A stretch of 53,157 nucleotides of DNA from an uncultured Eubacteriales bacterium (GCA_905195005.1 CAJJUC010000001.1:1-53157); one strand, 5' to 3'; shown: positions 11,119 through 25,623, numbered from the stretch's first letter. The notes: a model not told the origin generated them from the sequence alone. Numbers and translations are program-made.

Positions 11119-11646
11119 TCAATCCAGCGGTTCAACCTGGTAGAAATCAAACTCTACCTGCATTTCTCTGCCGCCGAACATTGTTACCATAACGTTTATT
11201 TTACGTTTTTCGGCATTTATTTCGAGAACCTCACCCATAAAGCCCTCCATGCTGCCGTCGGTTATGCGCACCGTGTCGCCGACATTAATTCCGATGTCGG
11301 GTACGCTCGTTTCAACGCCCATGCGCTCAACCTCACTGTCAGACAGGGGAACAGGCTTGCTTCCCGGACCGACAAAGCCCGTACAGCCGCGCGTGTTGCG
11401 CACGATATACCAGCTTTCATCCGTCATAACCATTTTCAAAAACACATATCCGGGATAAATTTTGCGCGAAACAGCTTTCTTTACACCGTTTTCGTTTTCC
11501 TCAACAGTTTCTTCCGTGGGGATTGCAACCTCAGCGATAAGATTTGACAGATTGCGGTTTTCAACGGTTTTTTCTATGCTGTCCTTAACCTTGTTTTCAT
11601 ACCCCGAATAGGTGTGGGCAACGTACCACTTAAATTCTGCACTCAT
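11119..11646 (-). CDS. nusG: transcription termination/antitermination factor NusG
   Basis: KWYVAHTYSGYENKVK at the N-terminus (NGN domain), C-terminal KOW domain, located between secE and rplK. Confidence 0.95.
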   Translation of the reverse strand: MSAEFKWYVAHTYSGYENKVKDSIEKTVENRNLSNLIAEVAIPTEETVEENENGVKKAVSRKIYPGYVFLKMVMTDESWYIVRNTRGCTGFVGPGSKPVPLSDSEVERMGVETSVPDIGINVGDTVRITDGSMEGFMGEVLEINAEKRKINVMVTMFGGREMQVEFDFYQVEPLD

Positions 11647-11687
11647 AATTTGCCGGGCGGCTTCGCCCTTCCCCCCTTATTTCAAAA

Positions 11688-11900
11688 TCAACCGAGAATC
11701 ATCTTGCTGAGTGAAATAAAGAGCGAATCAAGACCGAAGATAATCAGTCCGACAACGATAAGAGCCGCAATAACAATACCTGTGTTGTTGAAAAGCTGCT
11801 TTCTTGTCGGCCAAACGACTTTTTTCAATTCCGATTTAGTGGCTTTAAACGACTTCCCCACGCGGGCGAAAAATCCTTCTTTTTTAACGGTTTCTCCCAT
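11688..11900 (-). CDS. secE: preprotein translocase subunit SecE
   Basis: ORF 11688-11909 trimmed to ATG 11900 (GAGGGTG RBS). KSELKKVVWPTRKQL followed by a single TM segment. Confidence 0.85.
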   Translation of the reverse strand: MGETVKKEGFFARVGKSFKATKSELKKVVWPTRKQLFNNTGIVIAALIVVGLIIFGLDSLFISLSKMILG

Positions 11901-11915
11901 TACATTCACCCTCTA

Positions 11916-12065
11916 TTACTTAGATTCTTTGTGCAGCGTGTGCTTGCGGCAGAAAGGACAATACTTGTTCATTTCAATTCTGTCAGGGTCGTTTTTCTTA
12001 TTTTTCATAGTATTGTAATTACGCTGCTTGCACTCTGTGCACGCCATTGTGATTTTAACTCTCAT
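11916..12065 (-). CDS. rpmG: 50S ribosomal protein L33 (zinc-ribbon C+ form)
   Basis: ORF 11916-12101 trimmed to ATG 12065 (GGGAGG RBS). [49 protein letters not shown]. Confidence 0.9.
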
Positions 12066-12137
12066 AACTGCGCCTCCCGAGAAAAATTTACCCGCCTTCA
12101 TTGCACATAAAAAAAACCTTCACAGCGAGGTATTATT

Positions 12138-12166
12138 AATTTACCACATATAAGACGGCTTGTCAA
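12138..12166 (-). promoter_or_regulatory. sigma-A-type promoter for rpmG-secE-nusG
   Basis: Minus strand TTGACA (12166-12161), 17-nt spacer, TAAATT (12143-12138). Confidence 0.45.
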
Positions 12167-12212
12167 TAGTTTTTGAAAAATTTCTTGGCAAATTCAGCCG
12201 AAACAGTCGAAT

Positions 12213-12974
12213 TTATGCCAAAATCAGCTTTGTGTCCGATTCCTCGAGCCGTTTTTCCCAATGTGCGTCAAGCGGCTTTTCCGATACAAAGTAATCGATA
12301 TCGTCAAATGCCGCAAGCTTTGCAAAGCCCACACGGTCAAGCTTTGTATGCTCGCACACATATATTTTTGTCTGCGAATTTTCAATCATGCATTTTTTCA
12401 TTGCACATTCCCGCTCGTTGCTGTCAAGAATCCCTGCCTCGGCGGTTACGCCGCGCGAGCTGAAGAACAGCTTGTTGGCAAAATAATTTTCCCTGATTGC
12501 CGATTCGGCAAGGCTGCCGACAAAGGAGCGGCTGCCGCCGACAAGTCCGCCGGTTCCGATAACGCGTATATCGGTGCAGCCGGAAAGCTCGGCAATGGTT
12601 TCGAGCGAATTGGTGACAACGGTGATGTTTCTCATTGTTTTAAGCTCGCGCGCTATATAAAAGGTAGTTGTTGACGCGTCAAGAAAAATCGTGTCGCCGG
12701 GAGAAACAAGCTCTGCCGCGGCGCGCGCTACCAGCTCCTTGCCGGCAACATTAAGCTTTTTGCGTTTTTCAAGCGACGGCTCGTGCTTATTGTCGTCAAC
12801 GGGAACGGCTCCGCCGTGCGTTCTGAGCAAAAGCTCCTGTTTTTCAAGCTTCTCGAGATCCCTGCGGACGGTTTCCTCCGCAACGTTGAAATCGGCGCTT
12901 AATTTACTTACCTGAACGGCGCCGTTTTCGCGCAGAAGCTCAACTATTTTTTTCTGTCTTTCTATGGCAAACAA
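12213..12974 (-). CDS. DeoR-family transcriptional regulator (last gene of the BMC locus)
   Basis: TTG start behind AGGAGGG. N-terminal HTH ERQKKIVELLRENGAVQVSKLSADFNVAEETVRRDLEKLE plus a DeoR C-terminal sugar-phosphate sensor domain. Confidence 0.85.
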   Translation of the reverse strand: MFAIERQKKIVELLRENGAVQVSKLSADFNVAEETVRRDLEKLEKQELLLRTHGGAVPVDDNKHEPSLEKRKKLNVAGKELVARAAAELVSPGDTIFLDASTTTFYIARELKTMRNITVVTNSLETIAELSGCTDIRVIGTGGLVGGSRSFVGSLAESAIRENYFANKLFFSSRGVTAEAGILDSNERECAMKKCMIENSQTKIYVCEHTKLDRVGFAKLAAFDDIDYFVSEKPLDAHWEKRLEESDTKLILA

Positions 12975-12997
12975 GTTTTTCCCTCCTTATATCCGAC

Positions 12998-13030
12998 GAG
13001 CGGTAAATTGCGTATACCAATTTACCGCTC
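12998..13030 (-). terminator. 13-bp perfect hairpin between pduL and the DeoR gene (terminator-like, no clear U-tract)
   Basis: gagcggtaaattg (12998-13010) / caatttaccgctc (13018-13030), 7-nt loop. Could instead be an operator or RNA-stability element. Confidence 0.35.
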
Positions 13031-13045
13031 ATATAATGTACTTAT

Positions 13046-13678
13046 TTATTTTTTTATAAGCGTTACCATATCGCCGTTCCTGAGCCCGGCGCTGTTTGCG
13101 TCGTCAGTGTCGATATGCATTTCAACGTTGAAGTCGTCGCGCACTCTTATCTGCACATCGTAAAACTTGGTTGTTTTCTCTTTTCCGTGGCAAAGCACAT
13201 CAACGTAATCGCCGTCCTTAAGCTCATGAGCCGCAGCATATTCGGGCGTCAGATGAATATGCCTGTTTGCAATTATAACGCCTTCCTTTAAATATATGCT
13301 TCCCTTTGGACCGACAACAACTATTCTTTCGCTGCCCTCAATGTGACCCGATGGGCGAACCGGAGGGCTGACCTTAAGAATGAACGTGTCCGTTCTTGAA
13401 ATTTCAACCTGTGTGTTCTTGCGCACAGGTCCGAGCACTCTTACTCTTTCAATCGCCTTGAGCGACGGACCGACAAGCGTTACAAGCTCTTCGGAGGCAT
13501 ATTCGCGCCCCATGAGTTGCTTTTTCTTCGTAAGCTCGTAGCCCTTCCCGAAAAGGATATCGAGATGCTCCCGTGAAAGGTGGATGTGGCGCTGAGAAAC
13601 ACCGATTTTCACTTCGCCTTGGTTTACATATTCACTTGCCGCCTTGCGGACAATGTTTTCAATTTCTTTTATATCCAT
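13046..13678 (-). CDS. pduL: phosphate propanoyltransferase PduL, with an N-terminal amphipathic helix
   Basis: Duplicated RHIHL motifs (VSQRHIHLS, IANRHIHLT). N-terminus MDIKEIENIVRKAASEY. Confidence 0.85.
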   Translation of the reverse strand: MDIKEIENIVRKAASEYVNQGEVKIGVSQRHIHLSREHLDILFGKGYELTKKKQLMGREYASEELVTLVGPSLKAIERVRVLGPVRKNTQVEISRTDTFILKVSPPVRPSGHIEGSERIVVVGPKGSIYLKEGVIIANRHIHLTPEYAAAHELKDGDYVDVLCHGKEKTTKFYDVQIRVRDDFNVEMHIDTDDANSAGLRNGDMVTLIKK

Positions 13679-13959
13679 TATTCATCTACCTCTGTATCAA
13701 AAAACTTCATAAGCTCCTCGTGGGGATTTGCGATAACCTCGCAGCCGTAAACAGTTCCGAGCTTTTCCGCCTCCGCTTTTCCTGCTTCAATGGCTGCCTT
13801 AACAGCCGAAACCTGCCCCATCACCACAAAGGTAACAAGCCTTCCGCCGAGGCGCTTTTCCGAATGAATAATCCGCACCTGCGCCGCTTTAAGCATTGCG
13901 TCCAGACCGCTTATTGCCGCAACAAGACCCTGGATTTCGAGTATTCCGATTGATCTCAT
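13678..13959 (-). CDS. BMC-domain shell protein (BMC-H, 93 aa)
   Basis: MRSIGILEIQGLVAAISGLDAMLKAAQVRII...VSAVKAAIEAG is a single Pfam00936-type domain. Its stop overlaps the pduL start (TAATG). Confidence 0.85.
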   Translation of the reverse strand: MRSIGILEIQGLVAAISGLDAMLKAAQVRIIHSEKRLGGRLVTFVVMGQVSAVKAAIEAGKAEAEKLGTVYGCEVIANPHEELMKFFDTEVDE

Positions 13960-14303
13960 CTTTTAAATCCTCTCTTTCCGAGCTTCTTGTTATATTTGTC
14001 ACGGTTTATATCATTAAGATATGCCATCGCTTCGGTCTGGTCATCGGGGCGCGATATAACGTGCGACGTTATGTACTTGCCCTCACCCTCGGCATATGCC
14101 TTGCCTGCTTCAATTGCAGCCTTGACCGCCGCCGATGAGCCTTCTATTTTTACCTCCATTACAAGAGGCGCCGGAACGTCCGTCCTTATCGGGCGGTTTC
14201 TGTCAAACGCTATGATGCTCACATCGGCAGCCTTAGCCATTAAATCGGCTGTTACAAGCGCCGTTGTGAAGCTGTATACCTCGATCATTCCGAGTGCCTG
14301 CAT
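13956..14303 (-). CDS. BMC-domain shell protein (115 aa) with a basic C-terminal tail
   Basis: MQALGMIEVYSFTTALVTADLMAKAADVSII...AAVKAAIEAG, then the tail RDKYNKKLGKRGFKR. Confidence 0.8.
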   Translation of the reverse strand: MQALGMIEVYSFTTALVTADLMAKAADVSIIAFDRNRPIRTDVPAPLVMEVKIEGSSAAVKAAIEAGKAYAEGEGKYITSHVISRPDDQTEAMAYLNDINRDKYNKKLGKRGFKR

Positions 14304-14328
14304 TCAAATCATTCCTTTCGGGAGTTAA

Positions 14329-15717
14329 TCAAACGATATGAAGTCCGTCAGCCATTACGCATCTTCTTGCGCGCGTAAAGGAATGAGCAGCCGTCAAGCC
14401 CTCGCCCGTGGGTCCGGCAATGGTGAACGTTGTATAACCCTCGCCGCCTGCACCGATACCTGCATAGGAGGGAGCGTTTTTAACAAATATTGTCGTTTCA
14501 ACCTCGCGTGCAAAACGAGTGAGGTTGTCGATATTTTTTGAATGAATATGCGCACTGTGACGGCGGCCCGCTTCAGCCTTAACGCCGTACTCGATAGCCC
14601 GGTCGATATTATCAACGCGCACGATTGCAAGAATCGGCATCATAAGCTCTGTCTGAACAAAGGGATGATCAAAATCCGTTTCGCAGATGATAAGGCGCGG
14701 ATCGGCATCGATACCGATTGCCTTTAAGAACTTGCCTGCATCACGGCCAACCATTTTCTTGTTTATAACAAGCTTGCCGTCCTTTTCAACAAGTGCAACC
14801 TTAACGAGCTTGTCAATATCATCGCCCTTAACCATGTAAGCGCCGTTTTCAAGCATGCTTTGAATAAGCTCATCGGCAACGGAGGACACAACAAAGCATT
14901 CCTTTTCCGCAATGCACGGAAGGTTGTTGTCGAAGCTTGCGCCCTTAACGATGTCCGCACCGGCTTTTTTGATGTCGGCAGTTTCGTCAACGATAACCGG
15001 AGGATTGCCTGCGCCGGCGCCGATTGCCTTTTTGCCGGAGGAAAGAAGCATTTTAACAACGCCGGGACCGCCCGTTGCAACAAGCATTTTAACGAGCGGC
15101 GATTTAACCATCTCATCGGATGATTTCATTGTAGGATTCTTAACCGAAACAACAAGGTTTTCGGGACCGCCTGCTTCAAGAATCGCACGGTTTACCATAT
15201 CGACAGCAGCATTTGAGGTTTTCTTCGCATTCGGATGAGGATTGAAAACAACGGCGTTTCCGCCTGCAATCATACCCATTGAATTACAGATAACCGTTTC
15301 ACTGGGGTTTGTTGACGGCGTTATGCTTCCTATAATTCCGAAAGGAGCCATTTCTATAAGAGTAAGACCGTCGTCACCCGTCCATACGGAGGGCTTGAGA
15401 TCCTCCGTTCCGGGAGTTTTTTCGGCAACAAGCTGATGCTTTATCGTCTTATCCTCAACACGGCCCATGCCCGTTTCCTCAACGCCCATCTCGGCAAGCT
15501 TTGCCGCATTTTTTAGCGTGTATTCGCGGATTTTCGAAATCATTTTTTCGCGCTGAGCAACCGTGTAGGAACGAAATTCCTTATATGCCTTCGATACGGC
15601 TGCCAAAGCGTCCGACATTTCATCAAACACGCCGAGCTGCCTTGTATCGTTCGTCTGTGCGCCCATTTCGCTGAGAACGTTCTCAACTATCTGACTGATA
15701 TATTTTTCATCCAACAT
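14329..15717 (-). CDS. CoA-acylating aldehyde dehydrogenase (PduP/EutE-like) with an N-terminal encapsulation peptide
   Basis: ORF 14329-15750 trimmed to ATG 15717 (GAGAGGTG RBS). N-terminus MLDEKYISQIVENVLSEM. Catalytic loop NNLPCIAEKE. Confidence 0.85.
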   Translation of the reverse strand: MLDEKYISQIVENVLSEMGAQTNDTRQLGVFDEMSDALAAVSKAYKEFRSYTVAQREKMISKIREYTLKNAAKLAEMGVEETGMGRVEDKTIKHQLVAEKTPGTEDLKPSVWTGDDGLTLIEMAPFGIIGSITPSTNPSETVICNSMGMIAGGNAVVFNPHPNAKKTSNAAVDMVNRAILEAGGPENLVVSVKNPTMKSSDEMVKSPLVKMLVATGGPGVVKMLLSSGKKAIGAGAGNPPVIVDETADIKKAGADIVKGASFDNNLPCIAEKECFVVSSVADELIQSMLENGAYMVKGDDIDKLVKVALVEKDGKLVINKKMVGRDAGKFLKAIGIDADPRLIICETDFDHPFVQTELMMPILAIVRVDNIDRAIEYGVKAEAGRRHSAHIHSKNIDNLTRFAREVETTIFVKNAPSYAGIGAGGEGYTTFTIAGPTGEGLTAAHSFTRARRCVMADGLHIV

Positions 15718-15731
15718 TTGTAAGCACCTCT

Positions 15732-16280
15732 CTATAAAATGTTTTTCCACAAATCTTTTGCGGGACGGGGGATAACGGCGCTGTCAAGAAACATTCCCGT
15801 ATCTCCGCAGTCGCGCTTTGCGCGCTCAATTGCAGCAGTCACAGCCGCAACATCGCCCGTTATAAGAACATAGGACTTTCCGCACATGCCGCGCGCCAGT
15901 CTTATTTCTATAAGCTTTACCATTGACGTTTTCACCGTGTTATCCGCCGCAACGACAGCCGAAGCCGCGCTGTAGGTTTCGAACACGCCGAGCGCCTCCA
16001 CCTCAGACACATCGGTTGCTCCGCATATTGCCGGAATAACATCGTCATGAGGATTGCCGAGCACGAAGCTGTCAATAAGTCTTGACGGCAGTTTTTTGCG
16101 GCATGCATCGATTGACGCTCTTACCGCGCTGAGATCGCCGGCAAACGTTACAAGATATTTACCGGGGCAGACGGTACTTGCTTCAAGTATTTCAACCTCG
16201 GCAGTTTTAACAATTAAATCTGCCGCCTGCATACCCGATGAAACCGTAGTATATTCTACCATTCCCAATGCTTTATTCAT
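15732..16280 (-). CDS. tandem-BMC-domain shell protein (BMC-T, PduT-like)
   Basis: 182 aa with two BMC domains. Cys38 in STVCPGKY is at the position of the PduT pore [4Fe-4S] ligand, as I recall it. Confidence 0.8.
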   Translation of the reverse strand: MNKALGMVEYTTVSSGMQAADLIVKTAEVEILEASTVCPGKYLVTFAGDLSAVRASIDACRKKLPSRLIDSFVLGNPHDDVIPAICGATDVSEVEALGVFETYSAASAVVAADNTVKTSMVKLIEIRLARGMCGKSYVLITGDVAAVTAAIERAKRDCGDTGMFLDSAVIPRPAKDLWKNIL

Positions 16281-16285
16281 CTAAG

Positions 16286-17626
16286 TCAATTCCTTTCCGC
16301 AGATTCTATTGTTATTGTATCGCCCGTTACCTTAAGCACCTTCCCGTCAACCGGGCTGTGAATGGGCAGCCCCAATGCATTTTCGGGCGCTTCGGCGATG
16401 CAGTCGCCGCGCTTCACGCTTTGCCCCTCGGAAACCACGCACACGCTCGGGGCGCCGATATTCTGCCTGAGAGAGATATAAAGGCGTTTTACCTTTATTT
16501 CATCCTCAACGAGCGGCGAAGCATTATTATATTTTTCAAGGTCAAGCTTTTGCCTGAGCCTTGCAGTTGTCACTCTCCTGAAATCGCGTTCCTCAAGAGG
16601 AACCGCTTTTATTTTATCAAAGGTCTTAAGACCGTTTTTCTGAATCACTTTCTTTGCAAAGCCGATAAGCGTTCTGGGGTTAAGCCCCTGCTTGCAGGCA
16701 ACCATTTCACAAATTCCGCACTGCGAACAGTACTGCGTGTTAAGAAATGCTTTTGTATTCGTCGCATCGTCATTTTTCACGCCGCGCATGAACATGTGCG
16801 GTTCAATCGGATAACCGAGCAAATGCCTGGGGCACATATCCGTGCACATTCTGCACTGGCAGCACGCACTCATGGCGCGCCTTTTCAGAACGTTTACGTT
16901 TTGCATACGCTGCGCGATAACAGGATTCGTTCTCGGCAGCGCCAAAACTCCGTTTGTTGTTTTTTTGACGGTGTCATCACTTTTTGCGAGATTGCCCGTC
17001 ATCGGACCGCCGTTTAACAAAACGGTGTCGTCCTCGGTCGCTCCGCCGGCAAGCTCAACAAGATAACTGAGCGGTGTTCCGAGCGGAACGCAGTATGTCT
17101 GCGGATTTTTAACGGCTCCGCCGACCGTTACGTACTTATGCGTCACGCACTCGCCGTGAAGTGCGCGGTATGTATTAAGAATCGTTTCAACATTATAAAC
17201 GATTACCTTAACATCTATCGGGAGACCCCCGGCAGGCACGACACGTCCTGTCGTGTCATTGATGAGAATAATCTCATCGCCTGCCGGATAAACCTCCTTA
17301 AGATATTTTACTTCTCCGTGTTCGAACGCAGCAATATCGCGCTCGACAGCCTCCGCAGTGCTTGCATAGCCCTTTTTCAAAGCTACATAAAAATGTTCTG
17401 CACCGAGACTTTCGCGGATAACGTCAAGAGTGCTTATGATTTCATAAGAATAACGGCGCAGAAGCTGACGGTGAAGCCTGAAAAGCGGCTCACATTCCGC
17501 ACAGTTAAGAATAACCGTGTCAGCCTTGTCGTTAAGTTTTGCATATCCCGGAAATCCGGCGCCGCCGGCACCGGCAATACCGCAATTCTTCATCAAACCT
17601 TTAAGTTCGTCTAACCTCATTGCCAT
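16286..17626 (-). CDS. PduS/RnfC-like flavin and Fe-S oxidoreductase
   Basis: GAGGAGFPGYAKL nucleotide/flavin motif, SLBB-like region, and two ferredoxin motifs CCQCRMCTDMCP and CSQCGICEMVAC. Confidence 0.75.
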   Translation of the reverse strand: MAMRLDELKGLMKNCGIAGAGGAGFPGYAKLNDKADTVILNCAECEPLFRLHRQLLRRYSYEIISTLDVIRESLGAEHFYVALKKGYASTAEAVERDIAAFEHGEVKYLKEVYPAGDEIILINDTTGRVVPAGGLPIDVKVIVYNVETILNTYRALHGECVTHKYVTVGGAVKNPQTYCVPLGTPLSYLVELAGGATEDDTVLLNGGPMTGNLAKSDDTVKKTTNGVLALPRTNPVIAQRMQNVNVLKRRAMSACCQCRMCTDMCPRHLLGYPIEPHMFMRGVKNDDATNTKAFLNTQYCSQCGICEMVACKQGLNPRTLIGFAKKVIQKNGLKTFDKIKAVPLEERDFRRVTTARLRQKLDLEKYNNASPLVEDEIKVKRLYISLRQNIGAPSVCVVSEGQSVKRGDCIAEAPENALGLPIHSPVDGKVLKVTGDTITIESAERN

Positions 17627-17641
17627 TCCCTTTCCGTCTTA

Positions 17642-17908
17642 TCAGTGAATCGAAGAAACATCGTCGATGATTCCGACGATAGCCGCGTCAACGGGCGCGC
17701 TTTCCTCGTCCGTTCCTATTCTTGCGGCGCTTCCCATCGCCACAAGAACAGCTTCGCCCATACCGGCGCCGACATTGTCAACCGCGACAATGCGCTTTGC
17801 CTCCGGGCCGAATCCGGGAAGCGTTTCCACGATCATAAACTTATTTCCTACAAGCTTTTCGTTCTTGCGCGTCGAAACAAGTGTTCCGACAACCTTACCG
17901 ACTAACAT
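17642..17908 (-). CDS. BMC vertex protein (BMC-P; EutN/PduN/CcmL family)
   Basis: MLVGKVVGTLVSTRKNEKLVGNKFMIVETL..., 88 aa. Confidence 0.85.
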   Translation of the reverse strand: MLVGKVVGTLVSTRKNEKLVGNKFMIVETLPGFGPEAKRIVAVDNVGAGMGEAVLVAMGSAARIGTDEESAPVDAAIVGIIDDVSSIH

Positions 17909-17922
17909 TGAATTTCCTCCGA

Positions 17923-18201
17923 TTATTTAAGAGAGGGAAGAATTTTTTCAACATCAGTGTGAGGACGGGGAATTACGTGAACCGCGATAAGCTCGCCGAG
18001 CTTGCTTGCATTTGCGCTGCCTGCGTCAACAGCTGCTTTAACGGCGCCGACGTCGCCCCTTACCATAACGCTTACAAGACCGCTGCCGATTTTCTCCGTT
18101 CCGATAAGTGTTACGTTTGCTGCCTTAAGCATAGAATCCGCTGCTTCGATTGCCGCAACAAGACCTCTTGTTTCTACCATTCCGAGTGCTTCCTGTGTCA
18201 T
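17923..18201 (-). CDS. PduA/PduJ-like BMC-H shell protein (paralog A)
   Basis: ATG 18201 sits 8 nt after AAGGAGG and gives [22 protein letters not shown]... The ORF-track version (to 18276) adds [25 protein letters not shown], so the start is ambiguous. Confidence 0.85.
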
Positions 18202-18292
18202 AACCTTAACCTCCTTATTTATTTCAGCCGCCGCCGGAGCAGCAGCCTTTTTTGCCTGTTTTTTTTCAGCCATCATTTTTCACCCTTTCCGA

Positions 18293-18568
18293 TTAAAGAG
18301 TCGGAAGAATTTTCTCAACGTCAGTGTGAGGACGGGGAATTACGTGAACTGCGATAAGCTCGCCGAGCCTGCTTGCGCTTGTGCTGCCTGCTTCAACTGC
18401 TGCCTTAACTGCGCCGACGTCGCCCCTTACCATAACGCTTACAAGACCGCTGCCGATCTTTTCCGTTCCGATAAGCGTTACCTCTGCCGCTTTAACCATA
18501 GCGTCTGCTGCTTCAACCGCCGCAACAAGACCTCTTGTTTCAATCATACCCAATGCTTCCTGAGCCAT
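18293..18568 (-). CDS. PduA/PduJ-like BMC-H shell protein (paralog B)
   Basis: [61 protein letters not shown]... Confidence 0.9.
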
Positions 18569-18600
18569 TGTATGTACCTCCTATATAAATAATAATTATT

Positions 18601-19800
18601 TTACTTGTTTACGATGGCGATCTTAAGACCTTCCATCTTCAGGTTTGTAACGTGCGCTTCGTTAATCTCGCTGAGCGGGAAGCGGTGCGTTATAAGCTCC
18701 GACATCGGAAGACCGATAGCCTTTGCTCTCTTGAGAAAATCAAACGTTGTTGCATAATCGCGGAGCGTGTAAACCCACGAGCCGACAATCGTGATTTCCT
18801 TTGAACAAATATCAAAGTGCGGATTAATCGCAGCGTCGCCTCCGTTGATGAAGAAGCCGAGCTCGCAAAGTCCGCCGCCGTTGCGGATAAACTTATATAT
18901 ATTGCTGTGTGCCGCCGGAGCGCCCGTGCACTGGAAAGCAAAGTCGGCAAGATGACCGCCGAAGGTTGCCTCAACCGCACCGGTGAGAGCTTCAATGCCC
19001 TTATGCTCCGTGAAGTTGACCGTTTTGTCCGCGCCCATTTTCTTTGCAAATTCAAGGCGTTTCGGCTGACCGTCAACCGCTGTGATATTTTCAATACCCA
19101 TTGTTCTGAGAACGGCTATGCAGATAAGACCGATAGGTCCGCAGCCCTGAACGACAACGCGGCTGTTGAAGCGCAGGATTCCCGTTGTTTTTGCACGCTC
19201 AACCGCGTGAACGAGAACTGCGCACGGCTCTATAAGTATTCTCGAATCAAGGTCAAGGTCGCTTACGTTGAACACGGAAGATCCCTTTCTGATAAGAATA
19301 TAATCGGAGAACCAGCCGTTAAGGTGCACATCGTCATCGGGAAGAAGTCCGTAAACATCCGCTCCGCCGACATTCTGCTTGTTAAGGTCAAACATTGTGA
19401 TATCGGGATTATCCTTAAATATCATGCAGGTTACAACCTTATCGCCGACAGAAAGCTTCTTTCCGGCGCTGTCAACCTTTACGTCCTTGCCCATCTTAAC
19501 GATTTCGCCCGTTCCCTCGTGACCGAGAACAACAGGGATAAGACCGAAGGGGTCGCGCTTAAATTCATGCGCGTCCGTGCCGCAGATGCCGCAGCCCTCA
19601 ACCTTTACGAGAATATCGCCGTCACCAACCTCGGGAATGGGATATTCCTTAATGTCATAATGTTCAAGCTTTGTAAGCATTGCAACGCGAGCCGTTTTCG
19701 GGATAGGACCCGACGCACTCGGAGCGGCAGCCGGAGCGCCGTTCATTTCACTGAGCACCTGCTTTACAATCTGCTGAATTTTTTCAGAATTGATGTCCAT
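18601..19800 (-). CDS. zinc-dependent (MDR-family) alcohol dehydrogenase with an N-terminal encapsulation peptide and Ala/Pro linker
   Basis: ORF 18601-19833 trimmed to ATG 19800. N-terminus MDINSEKIQQIVKQVLSEMNGAPAAAPSASGPIP, then the ADH core with CGICGTDAHEF and GHEGTGEIV. Confidence 0.8.
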   Translation of the reverse strand: MDINSEKIQQIVKQVLSEMNGAPAAAPSASGPIPKTARVAMLTKLEHYDIKEYPIPEVGDGDILVKVEGCGICGTDAHEFKRDPFGLIPVVLGHEGTGEIVKMGKDVKVDSAGKKLSVGDKVVTCMIFKDNPDITMFDLNKQNVGGADVYGLLPDDDVHLNGWFSDYILIRKGSSVFNVSDLDLDSRILIEPCAVLVHAVERAKTTGILRFNSRVVVQGCGPIGLICIAVLRTMGIENITAVDGQPKRLEFAKKMGADKTVNFTEHKGIEALTGAVEATFGGHLADFAFQCTGAPAAHSNIYKFIRNGGGLCELGFFINGGDAAINPHFDICSKEITIVGSWVYTLRDYATTFDFLKRAKAIGLPMSELITHRFPLSEINEAHVTNLKMEGLKIAIVNK

Positions 19801-19865
19801 TGTATCATTCCTTTCTTTCCGTCCGTATCGCAAACGGAAAAATCATTGACAATCCGCCGGGCGGA

Positions 19866-20660
19866 TTATTTGCCCATTGCTTCAAGAACCTTTTTTGTGA
19901 TTTCCGCTACAAGGTCATTGTCGCCTTTTTTGCCGTTCGAGCAGCCGCCGCAGCTGTGGCAGCTTGCCTTACCGTCACGGTTGTTCGGGCAGAGATCTGC
20001 CGGATGCTTACCCTTAAGACCGAACTGACGGCGGATTTCGTACAGGCGCTGAACCTGCTCCTCATTAAGCTCCTTAGGACCGCCGAGCTGCTTTGAATTG
20101 AAGAGAAGCTGTGCATAAAACTCAACGGATTCCATCTTATGATATGCGTTCAGAAGCGAATCGCTGTAGGAAAGTGCGCCGTGGTTGGCAAGAAGAACAG
20201 CGTCAAAATGCTGAAGATACTTTTCAACAGCATCCGGAATTTCGTTTGTCGAAGGTGTGCCGTACTCGGCAATCGGAACGCAGCCGAGAGCGATGACAGC
20301 CTCGGGCATAATCGGCTGAGTCAGCGGAATGCCTGCAATTGCAAAGCTTGTTGCATAGATGGGATGAGCATGCACAACGCTTCTGACGTCGGGACGCTCT
20401 TTGTAAACTCTCATATGCATTTTGATTTCGCTGGAGGGCTTGAACGAACCGTTTGCTTCAAGCACCTTTCCCTCCTTATCGACCTTGCAGATGTAATCGG
20501 GAGTCATGAAGCCCTTGCTTACGCCCGTGGGTGTGCAAAGAAACTCGTTGTCGGAAATTTTAACCGAGATGTTGCCGTCGTTTGCGGCAACCATGCCTCT
20601 GTCATAAATTCTTTTACCGATTTCGCAAATCTGTTTTTTGATTTCGTACTCGTTTACCAT
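19866..20660 (-). CDS. class II aldolase (L-fuculose/rhamnulose-1-phosphate aldolase-like) with a Cys-rich linker and C-terminal encapsulation peptide
   Basis: ORF 19866-20669 trimmed to ATG 20660 (AAAGGA RBS). NDGNISVK and VVHAHPIYAT are class II aldolase motifs. Tail: CPNNRDGKASCHSCGGCSNGKKGDNDLVAEITKKVLEAMGK. Confidence 0.8.
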   Translation of the reverse strand: MVNEYEIKKQICEIGKRIYDRGMVAANDGNISVKISDNEFLCTPTGVSKGFMTPDYICKVDKEGKVLEANGSFKPSSEIKMHMRVYKERPDVRSVVHAHPIYATSFAIAGIPLTQPIMPEAVIALGCVPIAEYGTPSTNEIPDAVEKYLQHFDAVLLANHGALSYSDSLLNAYHKMESVEFYAQLLFNSKQLGGPKELNEEQVQRLYEIRRQFGLKGKHPADLCPNNRDGKASCHSCGGCSNGKKGDNDLVAEITKKVLEAMGK

Positions 20661-20721
20661 ATGTTTCATCCTTTCAAAAAGAAATTAATTAATAGCTGTT
20701 TCAAATTGTTGGCTTATGTTT

Positions 20722-20750
20722 ATTTTACACTCATTACAGCGTGTTGTCAA
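20722..20750 (-). promoter_or_regulatory. sigma-A-type promoter for the aldolase-to-pduL transcription unit
   Basis: Minus strand TTGACA (20750-20745), 17-nt spacer, TAAAAT (20727-20722). Confidence 0.5.
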
Positions 20751-20760
20751 TAGTATTTTG

Positions 20761-20780
20761 TGGTTTTTTGTGGTTTTTTG
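20761..20780 (-). repeat. perfect tandem 10-mer (tggttttttg x2), giving phased A-tracts upstream of the -35 (UP-element-like)
   Basis: 20761-20770 equals 20771-20780. On the minus strand it reads caaaaaaccacaaaaaacca, just 5' of the -35. Confidence 0.5.
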
Positions 20781-20786
20781 CCTATT

Positions 20787-21215
20787 TTATTGAGAAAGAT
20801 AGTTTAAAATCTCACTTATTCCCTCGTTATTGTATGATGAGGTGAAGAAAATCCGCTTGCAGCCGGCAATTCTAAGCCACATTTCCGCCATATCCGGGCG
20901 TGCGTGCGGCGCGTCCGTTTTTGTGACAATTCCTATAACCTCCCTGTTTGCCATCGGAGCAACGTTCGGGGGGTAGAGTGAATACGGTTCTGTTGCCGAA
21001 AGCAGCAGCCCCACCACATCAGCCTCATAAGAATAGAGCGCAAGCGCACGTCCGAGCTCGGGGTTTTCGGCATATTCGCCGGGGGTATCTATCACCGCGC
21101 CGCCGAAATTGACATACTGTGTTTTGTGATAATGAAGTTTCTCTCCGCGCAGCGCCTGCAGCAGCGTTGTTTTTCCTGCCTCGCTTCTTCCGATTAAAAT
21201 AAGCTTTTTCATCAT
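20787..21215 (-). CDS. EutP/PduV-family small GTPase
   Basis: ORF 20787-21233; the likely start ATG 21215 overlaps the upstream stop (ATGA). P-loop GRSEAGKTTLLQAL, DTPGEY, TKTD. Confidence 0.75.
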   Translation of the reverse strand: MMKKLILIGRSEAGKTTLLQALRGEKLHYHKTQYVNFGGAVIDTPGEYAENPELGRALALYSYEADVVGLLLSATEPYSLYPPNVAPMANREVIGIVTKTDAPHARPDMAEMWLRIAGCKRIFFTSSYNNEGISEILNYLSQ

Positions 21216-21580
21216 GTTTTTGTTATCGGGCAAACTGTGAAGCCGAGCGTTTTTTCCGCATATGCGACAACCGCGCTTACCGAAGCGTCAACCTCGGAAA
21301 CGGTTCCCGTCACAATAAGCGTTCCGCTGAAACGGTCAACAAATCCAATCTCAACGCCCGACGCCTTGATTGCAATATCACCGGCAATAATCGCTGTTTC
21401 GCTCGGAGTCATCGTAATAATTCCGATTGCCGATTTTGAATAGTCAACCGAAGGATCCAATCCGAGCTTTCTGTACAGAATTTCATCCGGATTTGCAATG
21501 ACATGCGCAAGCGTTATCTGCTTGCCGGGGACAATTTCCTGTATTATCCGCATTTTGTCCTTTAATTCAAATTCATTCAC
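21212..21580 (-). CDS. circularly permuted BMC shell protein (PduU/EutS-like)
   Basis: 122 aa. RIIQEIVPGKQITLAHVIANPDEILYRKLGL...SAIGIITMTP matches the PduU/EutS pattern. Confidence 0.8.
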   Translation of the reverse strand: MNEFELKDKMRIIQEIVPGKQITLAHVIANPDEILYRKLGLDPSVDYSKSAIGIITMTPSETAIIAGDIAIKASGVEIGFVDRFSGTLIVTGTVSEVDASVSAVVAYAEKTLGFTVCPITKT

Positions 21581-21584
21581 GCTG

Positions 21585-22370
21585 TCATCCCCCGATCTTT
21601 GCTTTCATTCCGCATTGCTCCGCCACAGCCTTAAGCCGCTGCATTTTCTCATCCGACGGCGGTTCAAGCTCTCCCATGCCGTAATCCCTGCCGAGCCAGC
21701 CGTACTTGTCCCGTCCGAGCTGATGATACGGCAGCAGATTGATTTCCTCAACATGCATTTTATCGTGTGCAAACCGCGCAATTTCCGCAATTTCCTCCTC
21801 TGTGTCGTTAAAAGTCGGAATTGTCGGCACGCGGACGATGCACTTTTTCGCATTCTGCGCAATTTTAACCGCGTTTTCAAGAATAAGCGAATTGTCGCGC
21901 GTTGTAAACTGCTTATGTTTTTCGCTGTTTATGTGCTTTATGTCGAGAAGATATGTATCGATATAAGGCAGCAGCCTTGCAATTGTTTCAAAGGAGGCGC
22001 AGCCCGTCGATTCCACCGCCGTGTTTATTCCGTGATTCTTTGCAAGCTTCAAAAGAGCAAGCGAAAAATCGGGCTGCATCAGCATTTCGCCGCCGGAAAG
22101 CGTCATTCCTCCGCCGCTGCGGCGGTAATACGATATATCCTTTTTAACCTCGGCAAAAACCTCCGCCGCCGTCACATCGCGCCCTACAAGCTTTGACCCG
22201 TCCGGCATATTCATCGTCTGAAACTCGAATTTCTGCGATTCGGGATTGCAGCACCAACGGCAGCGCAGCGGACAGCCCTTCAGAAAAACAATCGTTCTGA
22301 TCCCCGGTCCATCGTGCACCGAGTATTTCTGTATGTCAAATATTCTGCCCTTTACGTTTGAGTAGTCCAT
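21585..22370 (-). CDS. glycyl-radical enzyme activase (radical SAM, short PflA-like form)
   Basis: 261 aa. VHDGPGIRTIVFLKGCPLRCRWCCNPES carries the CxxxCxxC motif. No CxxCxxCxxxC ferredoxin-type insert is visible after it. Confidence 0.9.
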   Translation of the reverse strand: MDYSNVKGRIFDIQKYSVHDGPGIRTIVFLKGCPLRCRWCCNPESQKFEFQTMNMPDGSKLVGRDVTAAEVFAEVKKDISYYRRSGGGMTLSGGEMLMQPDFSLALLKLAKNHGINTAVESTGCASFETIARLLPYIDTYLLDIKHINSEKHKQFTTRDNSLILENAVKIAQNAKKCIVRVPTIPTFNDTEEEIAEIARFAHDKMHVEEINLLPYHQLGRDKYGWLGRDYGMGELEPPSDEKMQRLKAVAEQCGMKAKIGG

Positions 22371-22383
22371 TTCTGCCTCCTTA

Positions 22384-24894
22384 TCAGAAGCTCATCTGCT
22401 CCGTTCTTCTGATAATATCATCCTGAAGCGAGCGCGACAGAGTTGTAAACAGTGCGCTGTAACCCGCAACGCGGACAACAAGATTCTTGTAATTTTCGGG
22501 ATGCTCCTGCGCATCGCGCAGCGTTTCGCGGCTTACAACGTTAAACTGAACATGCATTCCCTTCTGGTCGAAGTATGCGCGTATAAGCGAAACAAAGTTC
22601 TGCAAGCCCTCATCGCCTTTAAGCGCCGACGGATGGAATTTCATATTGAACAGAGTTCCGTTTGAGGCAATTGCATGGTCGATTTTTGCAACCGAGTTTG
22701 CCGCTGCCGTCGGTCCGTGAACATCGCGCCCCGCGCAGGGAGAAACACCGTCCGCAATCGGGGTGAACGCCATGCGCCCGTCGGGAGTTGCGCCAGTCTG
22801 CGCCCCGAGCGGCACATTTGCCGAAACGGGGTAAAGCCCTGCCTGGAACATTCCGCCGCGCGGATTTTTGTATTTCTCGAGCGGGCGGGTATATGTATAA
22901 GCCGCCGCGCGGGCAAACTCGTCAACCTCGTCCATATCGTTTCCGAATTTCGGCAGCGCGGTTATGTCCTCCAGAAGCTGTGCATAGCGTGCGCTTCCGC
23001 TGCTCCCCCTGCTTTCATGAACATTTTTGTAAATTTCCTTAATGATTTCCTCGTTGAGCGAAACGCTGTGCTCGGCAAGGCGGCTTGCAATCTGCACTGT
23101 GATTTCTTCATCGCTTGCGGATGAATTTCCGCCGCTGAAATTCGCCTCCAGTGCCGCCTTAACCTCTTTGAGACTGTATTTCTTTTCATCATAGACAAGC
23201 TTTTTGACTGCGTAAAGCGCGTCCGCCATGTTCGCGATTCCGAAGCCCTGCGGTCCCGTGAAATTGTAGTGTGCGCCGCCCTCCTGAACCGATTTTCCTT
23301 TTTCGATGCAGTCGGAAACCATGGACGACAAGAACGGCAGCGGACAGCGGATTGAATGAGCCTTATCGATTGAATTATCGGAATTTACAAGCAGCGTTAT
23401 CATGTATTCCATCTGCTTTTTGTACGCGTCAAAGAATTTTTCGTATGTATCGAGCGTTTCAACCTCACCCGTTTTAACCGAAATCTGTTCGCCCTTGCTT
23501 TTTCCGTTCGAGAACACAAGCTCGAGCGGACGAAGCATGTTGAAGAACGCGGCATCGTGCCAGCCGTCCGTTTTTGACGGAGCCTGCGGCTCAACGCAGC
23601 CGATTATACAGTAATTATGCGCGTCCTCCGATGTTAATCCGCGGCTTAACAGAGCCGGAATGATAACCTCGTCATTGTAATATGCCGGAAGCCCGACGCC
23701 CGTGCGCGTTACATGCGCCGCCATTATAAGCAGCTCGTTCGGCGAACCGTTCCACACCCTTATCGATATGGACGGCTGCGGAAGCATAATATGGAGCGTT
23801 GCGTTCAGGCATATAAACGACAGCTCGTTTGTTGAATCGCGCCCGTCTTCCGTCTGACCGCCGACAATAAGGTTCTGGAAAAGACTGTAGCCTGCAAAGC
23901 CCTCCGCCGAAACGGCATCGCGCACCTTGTTGAGGTCATTGAGCTTGACCCAGATACAGTCAACAAGCTCCTGTGCAGTCGAAAGCGTGATTTTTCCGCT
24001 TTCGTAATCCTTTTTGAAGTAAGGATACATATACATATCAAATCTGCCGGGAGAAATCGAATGACCGCTGCCCTCCGTCTGAATAAGCATCTGAACAAAC
24101 CAGAACGACTGGCACGCTTCATAAAAGCTCTGCGCTCCGTTTGCCGGAACTCTGCGGCAGTTTGCGGCAATTCTCAAAAGCTCCTCTTTGCGTTCGCCGG
24201 TCTCCGCGCTCGCCATACTTTCGGCAAGCTGCGCATATCGGTTTGCATATAAAACGGCTGCGTCGCAGCACTCGATAACCGCTTCGAGGAAGCTTCTGCG
24301 CTGTGCATAATCCGCGTCCGCCGGCTGCACCTTTTCAAGCGCCGCCTGCGCCTCGGTCTTTATCCCGTTGTAGCCTATTGCAAGTACCTTTCCGTAGTCA
24401 ACGCACAGATGACCCACACCGTTATAAAAATAGTTTCCCGTTGTGAAAATGTTATGCTCGATCGCCTTAAGCGCTTCGGGCGCCATAAAGCTCGTTGCAA
24501 GATCGCTGTTTGTCTTGCCCTTCCAGTATTTATGCGCTTCTCTGAGCGCCTGCTTGTTTTCTTCGCTTATGTAGAATGGATCGGCAGAGCGCGTTGCAAC
24601 GGTGTCAAACTCTTTCTCGAGCCACTCGAACGAATATTCCGGGAAGGTTTGGCAGCTTCTCGGTCTCTTTGTGTTGCTGCCGACAATAAGCTCACCTTCG
24701 CGAATCGTTATCGGAAGATTTTTCATTATATGCGCAAACGCGGCGCTTCTTCTTTTAATTATCGGAAGATTCTCCGTCTGCATATAGCTCTCGGTAACAA
24801 GCCGCGCGCGGTCGCTCTCAATCTGAGGCATCTGCTCGAAAAGCATTTCCTTAAGCTTTTCAACGCGCGGAGTCACACCGATGCGTTCCATCAT
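22384..24894 (-). CDS. glycyl radical enzyme of the dehydratase/eliminase clade (probable 1,2-propanediol dehydratase), 836 aa
   Basis: ORF 22384-24963 trimmed to ATG 24894 (MMERIGVTPRVEKLKEML). Thiyl loop IIGCVEPQ (Cys433/Glu435), WHD (Asp447), radical loop VVRVAGYSA (Gly811). Confidence 0.9.
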   Translation of the reverse strand: MMERIGVTPRVEKLKEMLFEQMPQIESDRARLVTESYMQTENLPIIKRRSAAFAHIMKNLPITIREGELIVGSNTKRPRSCQTFPEYSFEWLEKEFDTVATRSADPFYISEENKQALREAHKYWKGKTNSDLATSFMAPEALKAIEHNIFTTGNYFYNGVGHLCVDYGKVLAIGYNGIKTEAQAALEKVQPADADYAQRRSFLEAVIECCDAAVLYANRYAQLAESMASAETGERKEELLRIAANCRRVPANGAQSFYEACQSFWFVQMLIQTEGSGHSISPGRFDMYMYPYFKKDYESGKITLSTAQELVDCIWVKLNDLNKVRDAVSAEGFAGYSLFQNLIVGGQTEDGRDSTNELSFICLNATLHIMLPQPSISIRVWNGSPNELLIMAAHVTRTGVGLPAYYNDEVIIPALLSRGLTSEDAHNYCIIGCVEPQAPSKTDGWHDAAFFNMLRPLELVFSNGKSKGEQISVKTGEVETLDTYEKFFDAYKKQMEYMITLLVNSDNSIDKAHSIRCPLPFLSSMVSDCIEKGKSVQEGGAHYNFTGPQGFGIANMADALYAVKKLVYDEKKYSLKEVKAALEANFSGGNSSASDEEITVQIASRLAEHSVSLNEEIIKEIYKNVHESRGSSGSARYAQLLEDITALPKFGNDMDEVDEFARAAAYTYTRPLEKYKNPRGGMFQAGLYPVSANVPLGAQTGATPDGRMAFTPIADGVSPCAGRDVHGPTAAANSVAKIDHAIASNGTLFNMKFHPSALKGDEGLQNFVSLIRAYFDQKGMHVQFNVVSRETLRDAQEHPENYKNLVVRVAGYSALFTTLSRSLQDDIIRRTEQMSF

Positions 24895-24983
24895 ATTATA
24901 ATCCAAAACAACCCCTCCGTTTCCGTAAATGACAATTTTCCTTTTATGCCGCTGTGGGTTCAATTCTGTTATGCCTTATATAT

Positions 24984-25012
24984 AGAATACAACACATTCA
25001 GACATTTGTCAA
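24984..25012 (-). promoter_or_regulatory. sigma-A-type promoter for the GRE-activase-pduU-pduV unit
   Basis: Minus strand TTGACA (25012-25007), 17-nt spacer, TATTCT (24989-24984). Confidence 0.45.
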
Positions 25013-25112
25013 TAGCAAATCGCAGAAATTCACAGATAAACACATATGTTTTCGCCCAAAACGGTCATCAAACCCACATAATGCCTTTTTAAAGGTTTTT
25101 TCAAGCTGTGTA

Positions 25113-25141
25113 TTGCAAAGAAAAAGCAAATGTGGTATTAT
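25113..25141 (+). promoter_or_regulatory. sigma-A-type promoter for tsaE-tsaB-rpiB-nrdR
   Basis: TTGCAA (25113-25118), 17-nt spacer ending in TGg (extended -10), TATTAT (25136-25141). Confidence 0.45.
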
Positions 25142-25179
25142 ATATAAATAGGAAATTATTATTACGGAGGGTGTGCCGA

Positions 25180-25623
25180 TTGGAATACTTATCTCACAGC
25201 GCCGAGGAAACGGAGCGCATTGCATATGATTTGGCCGCTGAAATTGAGCCGCCGTGCGTAATCTGCCTTTTCGGAGACCTCGGAGCCGGCAAAACGGCGT
25301 TTGTCCGCGGATTCGCGCGGCGCTTTGGAGTGACGGAGGGCGTGTGCTCGCCAACGTTCATAATAATGCACTGCTACAGCGGCGCCGTGCAGATAAATCA
25401 TTACGACCTGTATCGCATAGGCAGCTTTGAGGAGCTGGAGGATATTGGCTTTGACGAACAGATTTCAAGCGGAATCTCGCTCATTGAATGGCCGGATTCC
25501 TTTATTGACTGCCTGCCGGAGGAGCGCATTGATATTTCAATTACGCGCAGCGGCGATGATGAGAACACGCGCCGGATCACGGTTAAGGATTTGCGCCGGG
25601 TGCGAAAGGAGCAGTTATCATGA
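25180..25623 (+). CDS. tsaE: tRNA t6A37 biosynthesis ATPase TsaE
   Basis: ORF 25108-25623 trimmed to TTG 25180, 9 nt after GGAGG. P-loop LFGDLGAGKTAFVRG. Confidence 0.8.
   Translation: MEYLSHSAEETERIAYDLAAEIEPPCVICLFGDLGAGKTAFVRGFARRFGVTEGVCSPTFIIMHCYSGAVQINHYDLYRIGSFEELEDIGFDEQISSGISLIEWPDSFIDCLPEERIDISITRSGDDENTRRITVKDLRRVRKEQLS

Follow-up and report, generated by a model that had tools for sequence, protein, structure and literature searches.

Among glycyl-radical-enzyme microcompartments (GRMs), the GRM5 class is defined by three enzymes, namely a 1,2-propanediol dehydratase of the glycyl radical enzyme (GRE) type, an aldolase for fuculose-phosphate (pfam00596) and a reductase for lactaldehyde (pfam00107, pfam08240) (Ferlez 2019, PMC6325248). 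All 57 GRM5 loci examined in that study carry PduS and PduT, and none carries GrpU. The GRM5 GREs have no N-terminal encapsulation peptide, an insertion of about 60 residues being predicted to serve as one, and a ferredoxin-like insertion of about 70 residues is missing, among GRMs, only in the GRM5 activases (PMC6325248). A DeoR regulator has also been reported as a GRM5 feature (Axen 2014, PMC4207490), as has a C-terminal encapsulation peptide on the aldolase (Aussignargues 2015, PMC4594438; Sutter 2021, PMC8217296). Here we analysed a stretch of 53,157 nucleotides from an uncultured Eubacteriales bacterium (GCA_905195005.1, CAJJUC010000001.1:1-53157; hereafter the window), in which positions 12213-24963 hold 16 genes, all on the minus strand. 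Judged from its sequence, this locus is very probably a complete and ordinary GRM5 operon, encoding a deoxyhexose/propanediol microcompartment in the genome of an uncultured gut Clostridia.

The closest described systems are the GRM5 loci of Roseburia inulinivorans and Clostridium (Lachnoclostridium) phytofermentans (Cphy_1174-1186). In C. phytofermentans, fucose and rhamnose induce the bacterial microcompartment (BMC) locus, the cells form polyhedral bodies, and their products include propanol and propionate; the homologue of the aldolase in this locus is induced 62- to 86-fold on the two sugars (PMC3557285). The isomerase, kinase and transport genes for fucose (Cphy_3153-3155, Cphy_2010-2012) and for rhamnose (Cphy_1146-1149, Cphy_0580-0584) lie outside the BMC locus (PMC3557285). 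Two other systems share part of this equipment. The GRM3 system of Rhodopseudomonas palustris BisB18 resembles our locus in its glycyl radical propanediol dehydratase, which carries an insertion like an encapsulation peptide, and in its core of aldehyde dehydrogenase and PduL. However, it has no aldolase or Zn-dependent alcohol dehydrogenase, its activase has the ferredoxin-like insert, and GrpU is found in many GRM3 loci. The microcompartments of Planctomycetes and Verrucomicrobia (PVM and PVM-like) share the class II aldolase with a C-terminal encapsulation peptide, the origin of lactaldehyde from fucose and rhamnose, and a DeoR regulator, but they have neither GRE nor activase, and lactaldehyde is processed directly in an aerobic pathway.

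The 16 genes, called from an open reading frame (ORF) listing and from Pfam and NCBIfam profile searches, are given below in the order of transcription, where BMC-H, BMC-T and BMC-P are classes of shell protein and MDR stands for medium-chain dehydrogenase/reductase.

22384-24963, minus strand: GRE, 1,2-propanediol dehydratase type (PF02901, 1.8e-242; PF01228, 8.9e-39)
21585-22370, minus strand: GRE activating enzyme, radical-SAM, short and PflA-like, 261 aa (PF04055, PF13353)
21212-21580, minus strand: PduU/EutS-type (permuted) BMC-H shell protein (PF00936, 2.6e-14)
20787-21233, minus strand: PduV/EutP small GTPase (PF10662, 9.4e-50)
19866-20669, minus strand: class II aldolase, fuculose-/rhamnulose-1-phosphate aldolase type (PF00596, 1.5e-50, residues 13-188)
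18601-19833, minus strand: Zn-dependent MDR alcohol dehydrogenase (PF00107, PF08240)
18293-18568, minus strand: PduA-like BMC-H, first of a pair (PF00936, 7.9e-30 and 1.2e-29 for the pair)
17923-18276, minus strand: PduA-like BMC-H, second of the pair (PF00936, as above)
17642-17908, minus strand: BMC-P (EutN/CcmL) vertex protein (PF03319, 5e-28)
16286-17626, minus strand: PduS-like flavin/Fe-S oxidoreductase (PF01512, PF10531, PF13534, PF13375)
15732-16280, minus strand: PduT-like BMC-T with tandem BMC domains and Cys38 (PF00936 in two stretches, 7.9e-45)
14329-15750, minus strand: CoA-acylating aldehyde dehydrogenase (AldDH), PduP type (NF011927, 679 bits vs a cut-off of 403; PF00171)
13956-14303, minus strand: further BMC-H, first of a pair (PF00936, 1.9e-21 and 8.3e-21 for the pair)
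13678-13959, minus strand: further BMC-H, second of the pair (PF00936, as above)
13046-13678, minus strand: PduL phosphate propanoyltransferase (PF06130, 2.7e-68; NF011652, 237 bits vs a cut-off of 209)
12213-12974, minus strand: DeoR-family regulator (PF00455, PF08220)

The Pfam E-values of these genes range from 1e-14 to 1e-242, and chance is therefore excluded for the gene family calls. The original prediction, made by a model from the sequence alone, had named these families on a common minus strand, and every one of them was recovered by the Pfam and NCBIfam profiles. Its count of seventeen genes has to be corrected to 16, which is also the sum of the genes that it listed. It had also noted that genes for a B12-dependent diol dehydratase or an ethanolamine lyase are missing, and none was found within the locus. 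Every published sequence-level hallmark of GRM5 is present, including PduS and PduT without GrpU, AldDH, PduL and the DeoR regulator. This supports the proposal that the locus belongs to the fucose/rhamnose type of GRM known from C. phytofermentans and R. inulinivorans, along with the view that the class is probably not new.

The GRE was placed by ranking its scores against all PDB chains and against NCBIfam equivalog models, in place of a formal tree. The best match among PDB chains was the R. inulinivorans diol dehydratase (5i2a; 1218 bits), aligned in a single stretch over residues 28-857 with 62.7% identity over 831 columns. The Clostridium butyricum glycerol dehydratase came second (1001 bits), and lower scores were obtained with the choline trimethylamine-lyases (CutC; at most 597 bits), the hydroxyproline dehydratase (HypD; 518 bits) and the isethionate sulfite-lyase (IslA; 420 bits). 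By this ranking, the GRE sits with the 1,2-propanediol dehydratases; it does not group with the choline, hydroxyproline or isethionate lyases, which the original prediction had named as the placement that would speak against it. NCBIfam equivalog scores far under the cut-offs led us to reject CutC, HypD, sulfopropanediol dehydratase and indoleacetate decarboxylase as identities, and isethionate lyase was rejected on the PDB scores (420 vs 1218 bits). The protein carries the GCVEP motif, with the catalytic Cys-x-Glu (the CXE motif of the GRE 1,2-eliminases; PMC13450708), and the RVAGYS motif, with the radical Gly, both in register with 5i2a.

Moreover, the GRE contains an internal insertion of about 57 residues (ORF residues 612-668, about 22960-23130) with two amphipathic stretches. 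This insertion aligns with the R. inulinivorans enzyme and is missing in the C. butyricum glycerol dehydratase, where the alignment is split in two. The ORF opens at TTG 24963, and the true start is likely TTG 24906 (with GGAGG 7 nt upstream) or ATG 24894. The alignment with the R. inulinivorans diol dehydratase begins at the N-terminus of this likely protein, which has no N-terminal encapsulation peptide. As for the activase, it shows a single radical-SAM motif (CPLRCRWC; CxxxCxxC) and is without the ferredoxin-like insert. It aligns end to end in one stretch with TIGR02493 (PFLA), and in two stretches with TIGR02494, about 38 model positions being skipped; the Pfam search gave no match to Fer4 (PF00037) in this protein. 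Taken alone, a short activase, a GRE insertion and PduS/PduT without B12 enzymes look odd; they are accounted for as published hallmarks of GRM5.

All three classes of shell protein are encoded, with five single-domain PF00936 proteins, one tandem-domain PF00936 protein and one PF03319 protein. An assembly-wide search found all 7 BMC domains of the assembly confined to the locus (12213-24963). The GrpU pore motif (G-x-C-P-Q-N/H) is absent in all 6 BMC-domain proteins of the locus, and a GrpU identity was rejected for the PduU-like protein (21212-21580) on this ground. For the second PduA-like gene (17923-18276), an upstream in-frame ATG would add a possible N-terminal extension of 25 residues rich in Lys and Ala. 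Three of the enzymes start with peptides that may direct them to the shell interior. The alcohol dehydrogenase, whose likely start is ATG 19800, begins with the putative N-terminal encapsulation peptide EKIQQIVKQVLSEM, the AldDH begins with the putative N-terminal encapsulation peptide EKYISQIVENVLSEM, and PduL carries the short encapsulation-like peptide IKEIENIVRKAASEY at its N-terminus. These three N-termini are amphipathic and similar in kind to the tail of the aldolase.

The aldolase likely starts at ATG 20660, in agreement with the MVNEYE start of all relatives. It ends in a tail of about 50 residues with a putative C-terminal encapsulation peptide (DLVAEITKKVLEAMGK), which is kept in 57 of 57 relatives, and the protein is 75-89% identical across 35 aligned species. 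It is also the only PF00596 protein in the assembly, in which no AraD-type epimerase is found, the sole PF00596 match being this aldolase.

The GRM5 loci of R. inulinivorans and C. phytofermentans contain the same set of genes: the GRE with its insertion, the short activase, the PduU-type protein, the aldolase with a C-terminal encapsulation peptide, the Zn-dependent alcohol dehydrogenase, AldDH, PduL, PduS, PduT, the BMC-H and BMC-P shell genes, and DeoR. The genome of C. phytofermentans and the present one are also alike in having the sugar isomerase and kinase genes outside the microcompartment locus. Some differences were nevertheless observed. The gene order of the C. phytofermentans type departs from the order here after the alcohol dehydrogenase, the hydrolase and DUF336 accessory genes listed for GRM5 by Axen 2014 are not in our locus, PduV is present in it, and the GRE shares only the identity given above (62.7%) with the R. 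inulinivorans enzyme.

We then considered the sugars that may feed this compartment. According to the original prediction, no sugar isomerase, kinase or transporter lies in the window; candidate isomerase and kinase genes were located on other contigs of the same metagenome-assembled genome (MAG; 2.38 Mb, 263 contigs, 94% complete). An L-fucose isomerase (FucI) was identified at the equivalog level (999 bits vs a cut-off of 775; contig C79, 4209-5996), solitary between recJ and trmD. An L-rhamnose isomerase (RhaA; PF06134, 396 bits) lies behind an AraC/RhaS-like regulator on contig C192, and a rhamnulokinase-like FGGY kinase stands alone among unrelated genes on contig C5. The assembly also encodes two further FGGY kinases and a single acetate kinase. 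Since the microcompartment aldolase is the sole PF00596 protein of the assembly, there is no other candidate enzyme for the cleavage of what these isomerases and kinases produce. Three proteins of about 470 aa with a Fucose_iso_C domain were also found (contigs C44, C149 and C85), one of them weakly like a sulfoquinovose isomerase, and two of their three genes adjoin XylB-like FGGY kinases. In this small genome, catabolic genes such as those of FucI and the rhamnulokinase-like protein occur one by one, dispersed between housekeeping genes.

By analogy with the characterised systems, fucose and rhamnose are well-supported as probable substrates. Several observations weigh against the overall assignment. 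No NCBIfam equivalog cut-off is reached by the aldolase, which scores best, though still sub-threshold, with 3-oxo-tetronate-4-phosphate decarboxylase (142 bits) and FucA (PRK06833; 129 bits). The RhaA gene runs off the end of its contig, the rhamnulokinase-like kinase stays under the rhamnulokinase cut-off (449 vs 528 bits), and neither a clear fuculokinase nor a clear deoxyhexose transporter could be identified in the assembly. The statements that there is only one such aldolase and only one BMC locus hold for a 94%-complete assembly and not for the organism. Finally, published accounts differ on what the Zn-dependent alcohol dehydrogenase does, some describing a lactaldehyde reductase and others a propanol dehydrogenase.

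The following pathway is proposed from characterised homologous systems, as regards its substrates, the encapsulation of its enzymes and the ligand of its regulator. L-fucose and L-rhamnose would be isomerised and phosphorylated in the cytosol, FucI, RhaA and the FGGY kinases on other contigs being the candidates for these steps. The encapsulated aldolase would split fuculose-1-phosphate or rhamnulose-1-phosphate into dihydroxyacetone phosphate and L-lactaldehyde, which the Zn-dependent alcohol dehydrogenase would reduce to 1,2-propanediol. Within a shell presumably built of five BMC-H, one BMC-T and one BMC-P protein, the GRE, once activated by the short radical-SAM activase, would convert propanediol to propionaldehyde. 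AldDH and PduL would then lead from propionaldehyde to propionyl-CoA and propionyl-phosphate, and the single acetate/propionate kinase would yield propionate and ATP. Some of the aldehyde would leave through an alcohol dehydrogenase branch as 1-propanol, rebalancing NAD(H). Electron transfer through the shell is probably the task of PduS and PduT, and the DeoR regulator probably places expression under the control of a sugar phosphate.

The GRE, AldDH, PduL and the shell make up a complete propanediol-utilisation core by themselves, and the GREs of GRM3 and GRM5 are alike in active-site architecture (PMC5311937). The organelle might thus serve mainly for exogenous 1,2-propanediol released by neighbouring gut bacteria, in the manner of GRM3 or PDU compartments, with the aldolase and the alcohol dehydrogenase accessory or unused. 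We regard this as improbable. The aldolase has a conserved encapsulation peptide and shares 75-89% identity across 35 species, which argues for strong selection, and without this sole class II aldolase FucI and RhaA would lead nowhere. The use of exogenous propanediol and that of deoxyhexoses do not exclude each other.

Two further explanations concern the identity of individual enzymes. GRE eliminases are hard to separate by sequence (PMC13450708), and with the C. butyricum glycerol dehydratase as second-best PDB match (1001 bits), the GRE could be a B12-independent glycerol dehydratase whose compartment handles 3-hydroxypropionaldehyde. However, the propanediol dehydratase scores 217 bits more and aligns continuously, including over the insertion that the glycerol dehydratase is without; the aldolase/alcohol dehydrogenase context and the synteny with GRM5 loci also favour propanediol, so that a glycerol substrate appears very unlikely. 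Still less credible is that the aldolase-family protein has another phosphorylated substrate, being for instance a decarboxylase or an epimerase within the class II aldolase superfamily, the compartment then serving a different aldehyde-yielding pathway. Its top NCBIfam score is indeed for a decarboxylase and no equivalog cut-off is reached, but all the aldolase scores are sub-threshold and near one another. Moreover, fucose and rhamnose induce the homologous aldolase of C. phytofermentans by a factor of 62 to 86 (PMC3557285), and the downstream propanediol dehydratase requires an input of lactaldehyde or propanediol. A GRM5 locus for deoxyhexoses is the reading that we retain.

The distribution of this GRM5 locus was investigated by scanning one genome per species for GRE relatives and by running tblastn with the window proteins on the loci of these relatives. 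At least 595 GRE relatives were detected, and the best 80 share 67-84% identity with our protein. Most of these carry the label of a gut or rumen MAG of Clostridia, Oscillospiraceae or Acutalibacteraceae, and a few belong to cultured strains (Lachnotalea sp., Clostridium disporicum and Clostridium hominis). The same gene order, from the GRE through PduL (and, bracketed, DeoR), was found in many species with a GRE identity of 67-97% (for example in loci L014, L019, L032, L037, L042, L043, L045, L051 and L055, and further in L056, L059, L063, L071, L073 and L076). In relatives, too, the DeoR gene closes the locus on its distal side. Two other orders were encountered, namely a variant in Acutalibacteraceae and that of Lachnotalea (L046), where the AldDH gene immediately follows that of the aldolase, an arrangement also given by the C. 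phytofermentans gene list (Cphy_1177 aldolase, Cphy_1178 AldDH; PMC3557285).

Within the same genus, 12 of 18 genomes gave a GRE match, at 76-97% identity for 10 of these 12, and no match was found among the 11 genomes of a neighbouring family (f3). Three genomes of the genus carry a second or different GRE with 65-66% identity (G007:C62, G014:C181 and G015:C28, the last being locus L117). In L117, this GRE is directly followed by PduU, PduV and BMC-H genes, with no adjacent activase or aldolase, which looks like a different GRM arrangement. In another congener (G016:C40:21795-24067), the GRE is split in two frames with an in-frame TAG, and may be a pseudogene or an assembly error.

The original prediction had also stressed that the island is inserted between rpmG-secE-nusG-rplKAJL and tsaEB, an unusual neighbourhood for a catabolic organelle. 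The flanks themselves are as described. On the low-coordinate side lie rpmG (49 aa), secE, nusG, rplK, rplA, rplJ and rplL, on the high-coordinate side the divergent tsaE, tsaB and nrdR, and no tRNA gene lies within 8000-29000. The block of tsaE, tsaB, nrdR and an AMP-ligase beside the GRE is common to the closest relatives (L013-L017, L019 and G004), and several species of the same genus share the tsaEB adjacency. At its DeoR end, the locus was found to adjoin rpmG-secE-nusG only here and in the nearest sister genome, G004 (GRE 97%, NusG 99% identity). In 18 of 19 fetched relatives, neither the locus nor the tsaEB genes were detected within at most about 18 kb upstream of nusG (less at contig ends). 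Three congeners (G005, G008 and G010) have the same 16-gene locus with other flanks, and G005 is also without tsaEB on the GRE side. The GC content of the locus (0.46-0.54) is unremarkable compared with other parts of the window.

An island inserted between translation clusters was consequently rejected as a meaningful feature, and the functional emphasis placed on it does not stand. Because the flanks vary among relatives, and FucI too sits between housekeeping genes, we read the position of the locus as the outcome of a rearrangement specific to this lineage, whose genome is small and shuffled. This position is evidence neither of a recent insertion nor of any particular tie to the translation machinery.

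Two intergenic regions carry promoter-like sites.

20670-20786, minus strand: intergenic gap of 117 bp, with a promoter-like TTGACA-17-TAAAAT at 20750-20722 (11/12 consensus match)
24964-25107, no strand assigned: divergent intergenic region between the GRE gene and tsaE, with a promoter-like TTGACA-17-TATTCT at 25012-24984 on the minus strand (10/12)

These are the two best minus-strand matches to the sigma-70 consensus in 11600-25300, and they fall where promoters had been proposed (near 25012 and 20750). The site at 20750-20722, the putative start of a second transcription unit, is the best promoter-like match of the region. As consensus matches only, the two sites support two transcription units without proving them.

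Finally, we looked at the segment between the core of the aldolase and its tail peptide (19941-19991), which is rich in Cys and His. The linkers of these aldolases have been described as unconserved, yet the composition table of the same study gives 5.5% Cys for them (Aussignargues 2015, PMC4594438). The pattern H-P-A-[DN]-x-C-x(6-11)-C-H-x-C, with at least four Cys in the tail, was present in 57 of 57 complete aldolases of related loci. The fuller motif, H-P-A-[DN]-x-C-x(6-11)-C-H-x-C-x(2-3)-C, includes four Cys and two His that are invariant; in the 35-sequence alignment, the invariant residues are H219, P220, A221, C224, G230, C234, H235, C237 and C240. An AlphaFold2 model computed from this alignment is of low confidence (mean predicted local distance difference test score of 62, below 52 in the tail) and predicts a terminal helix at residues 248-261. 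No description of this motif was found in the literature searched. The linker might be a small conserved metal site (Zn or Fe-S) and not an unconserved tether, a suggestion that we make tentatively from the conserved residues and hold to be rather doubtful. If true, the metal site might serve to place the aldolase at the shell or to gate it there by redox state, or else couple the enzyme to electron flow through PduS/PduT. The motif is a feature of the whole GRM5 family and not peculiar to this locus, and it is the only item here that might merit bench work.

GRM5 is described in the literature as common in gut microbiomes, and the present locus adds one more lineage of uncultured gut Clostridia to the many known with it. 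For annotation, this genome can be credited with a route from deoxyhexoses to propionate and propanol, which bears on the formation of propionate in the gut from mucin fucose and plant rhamnose.

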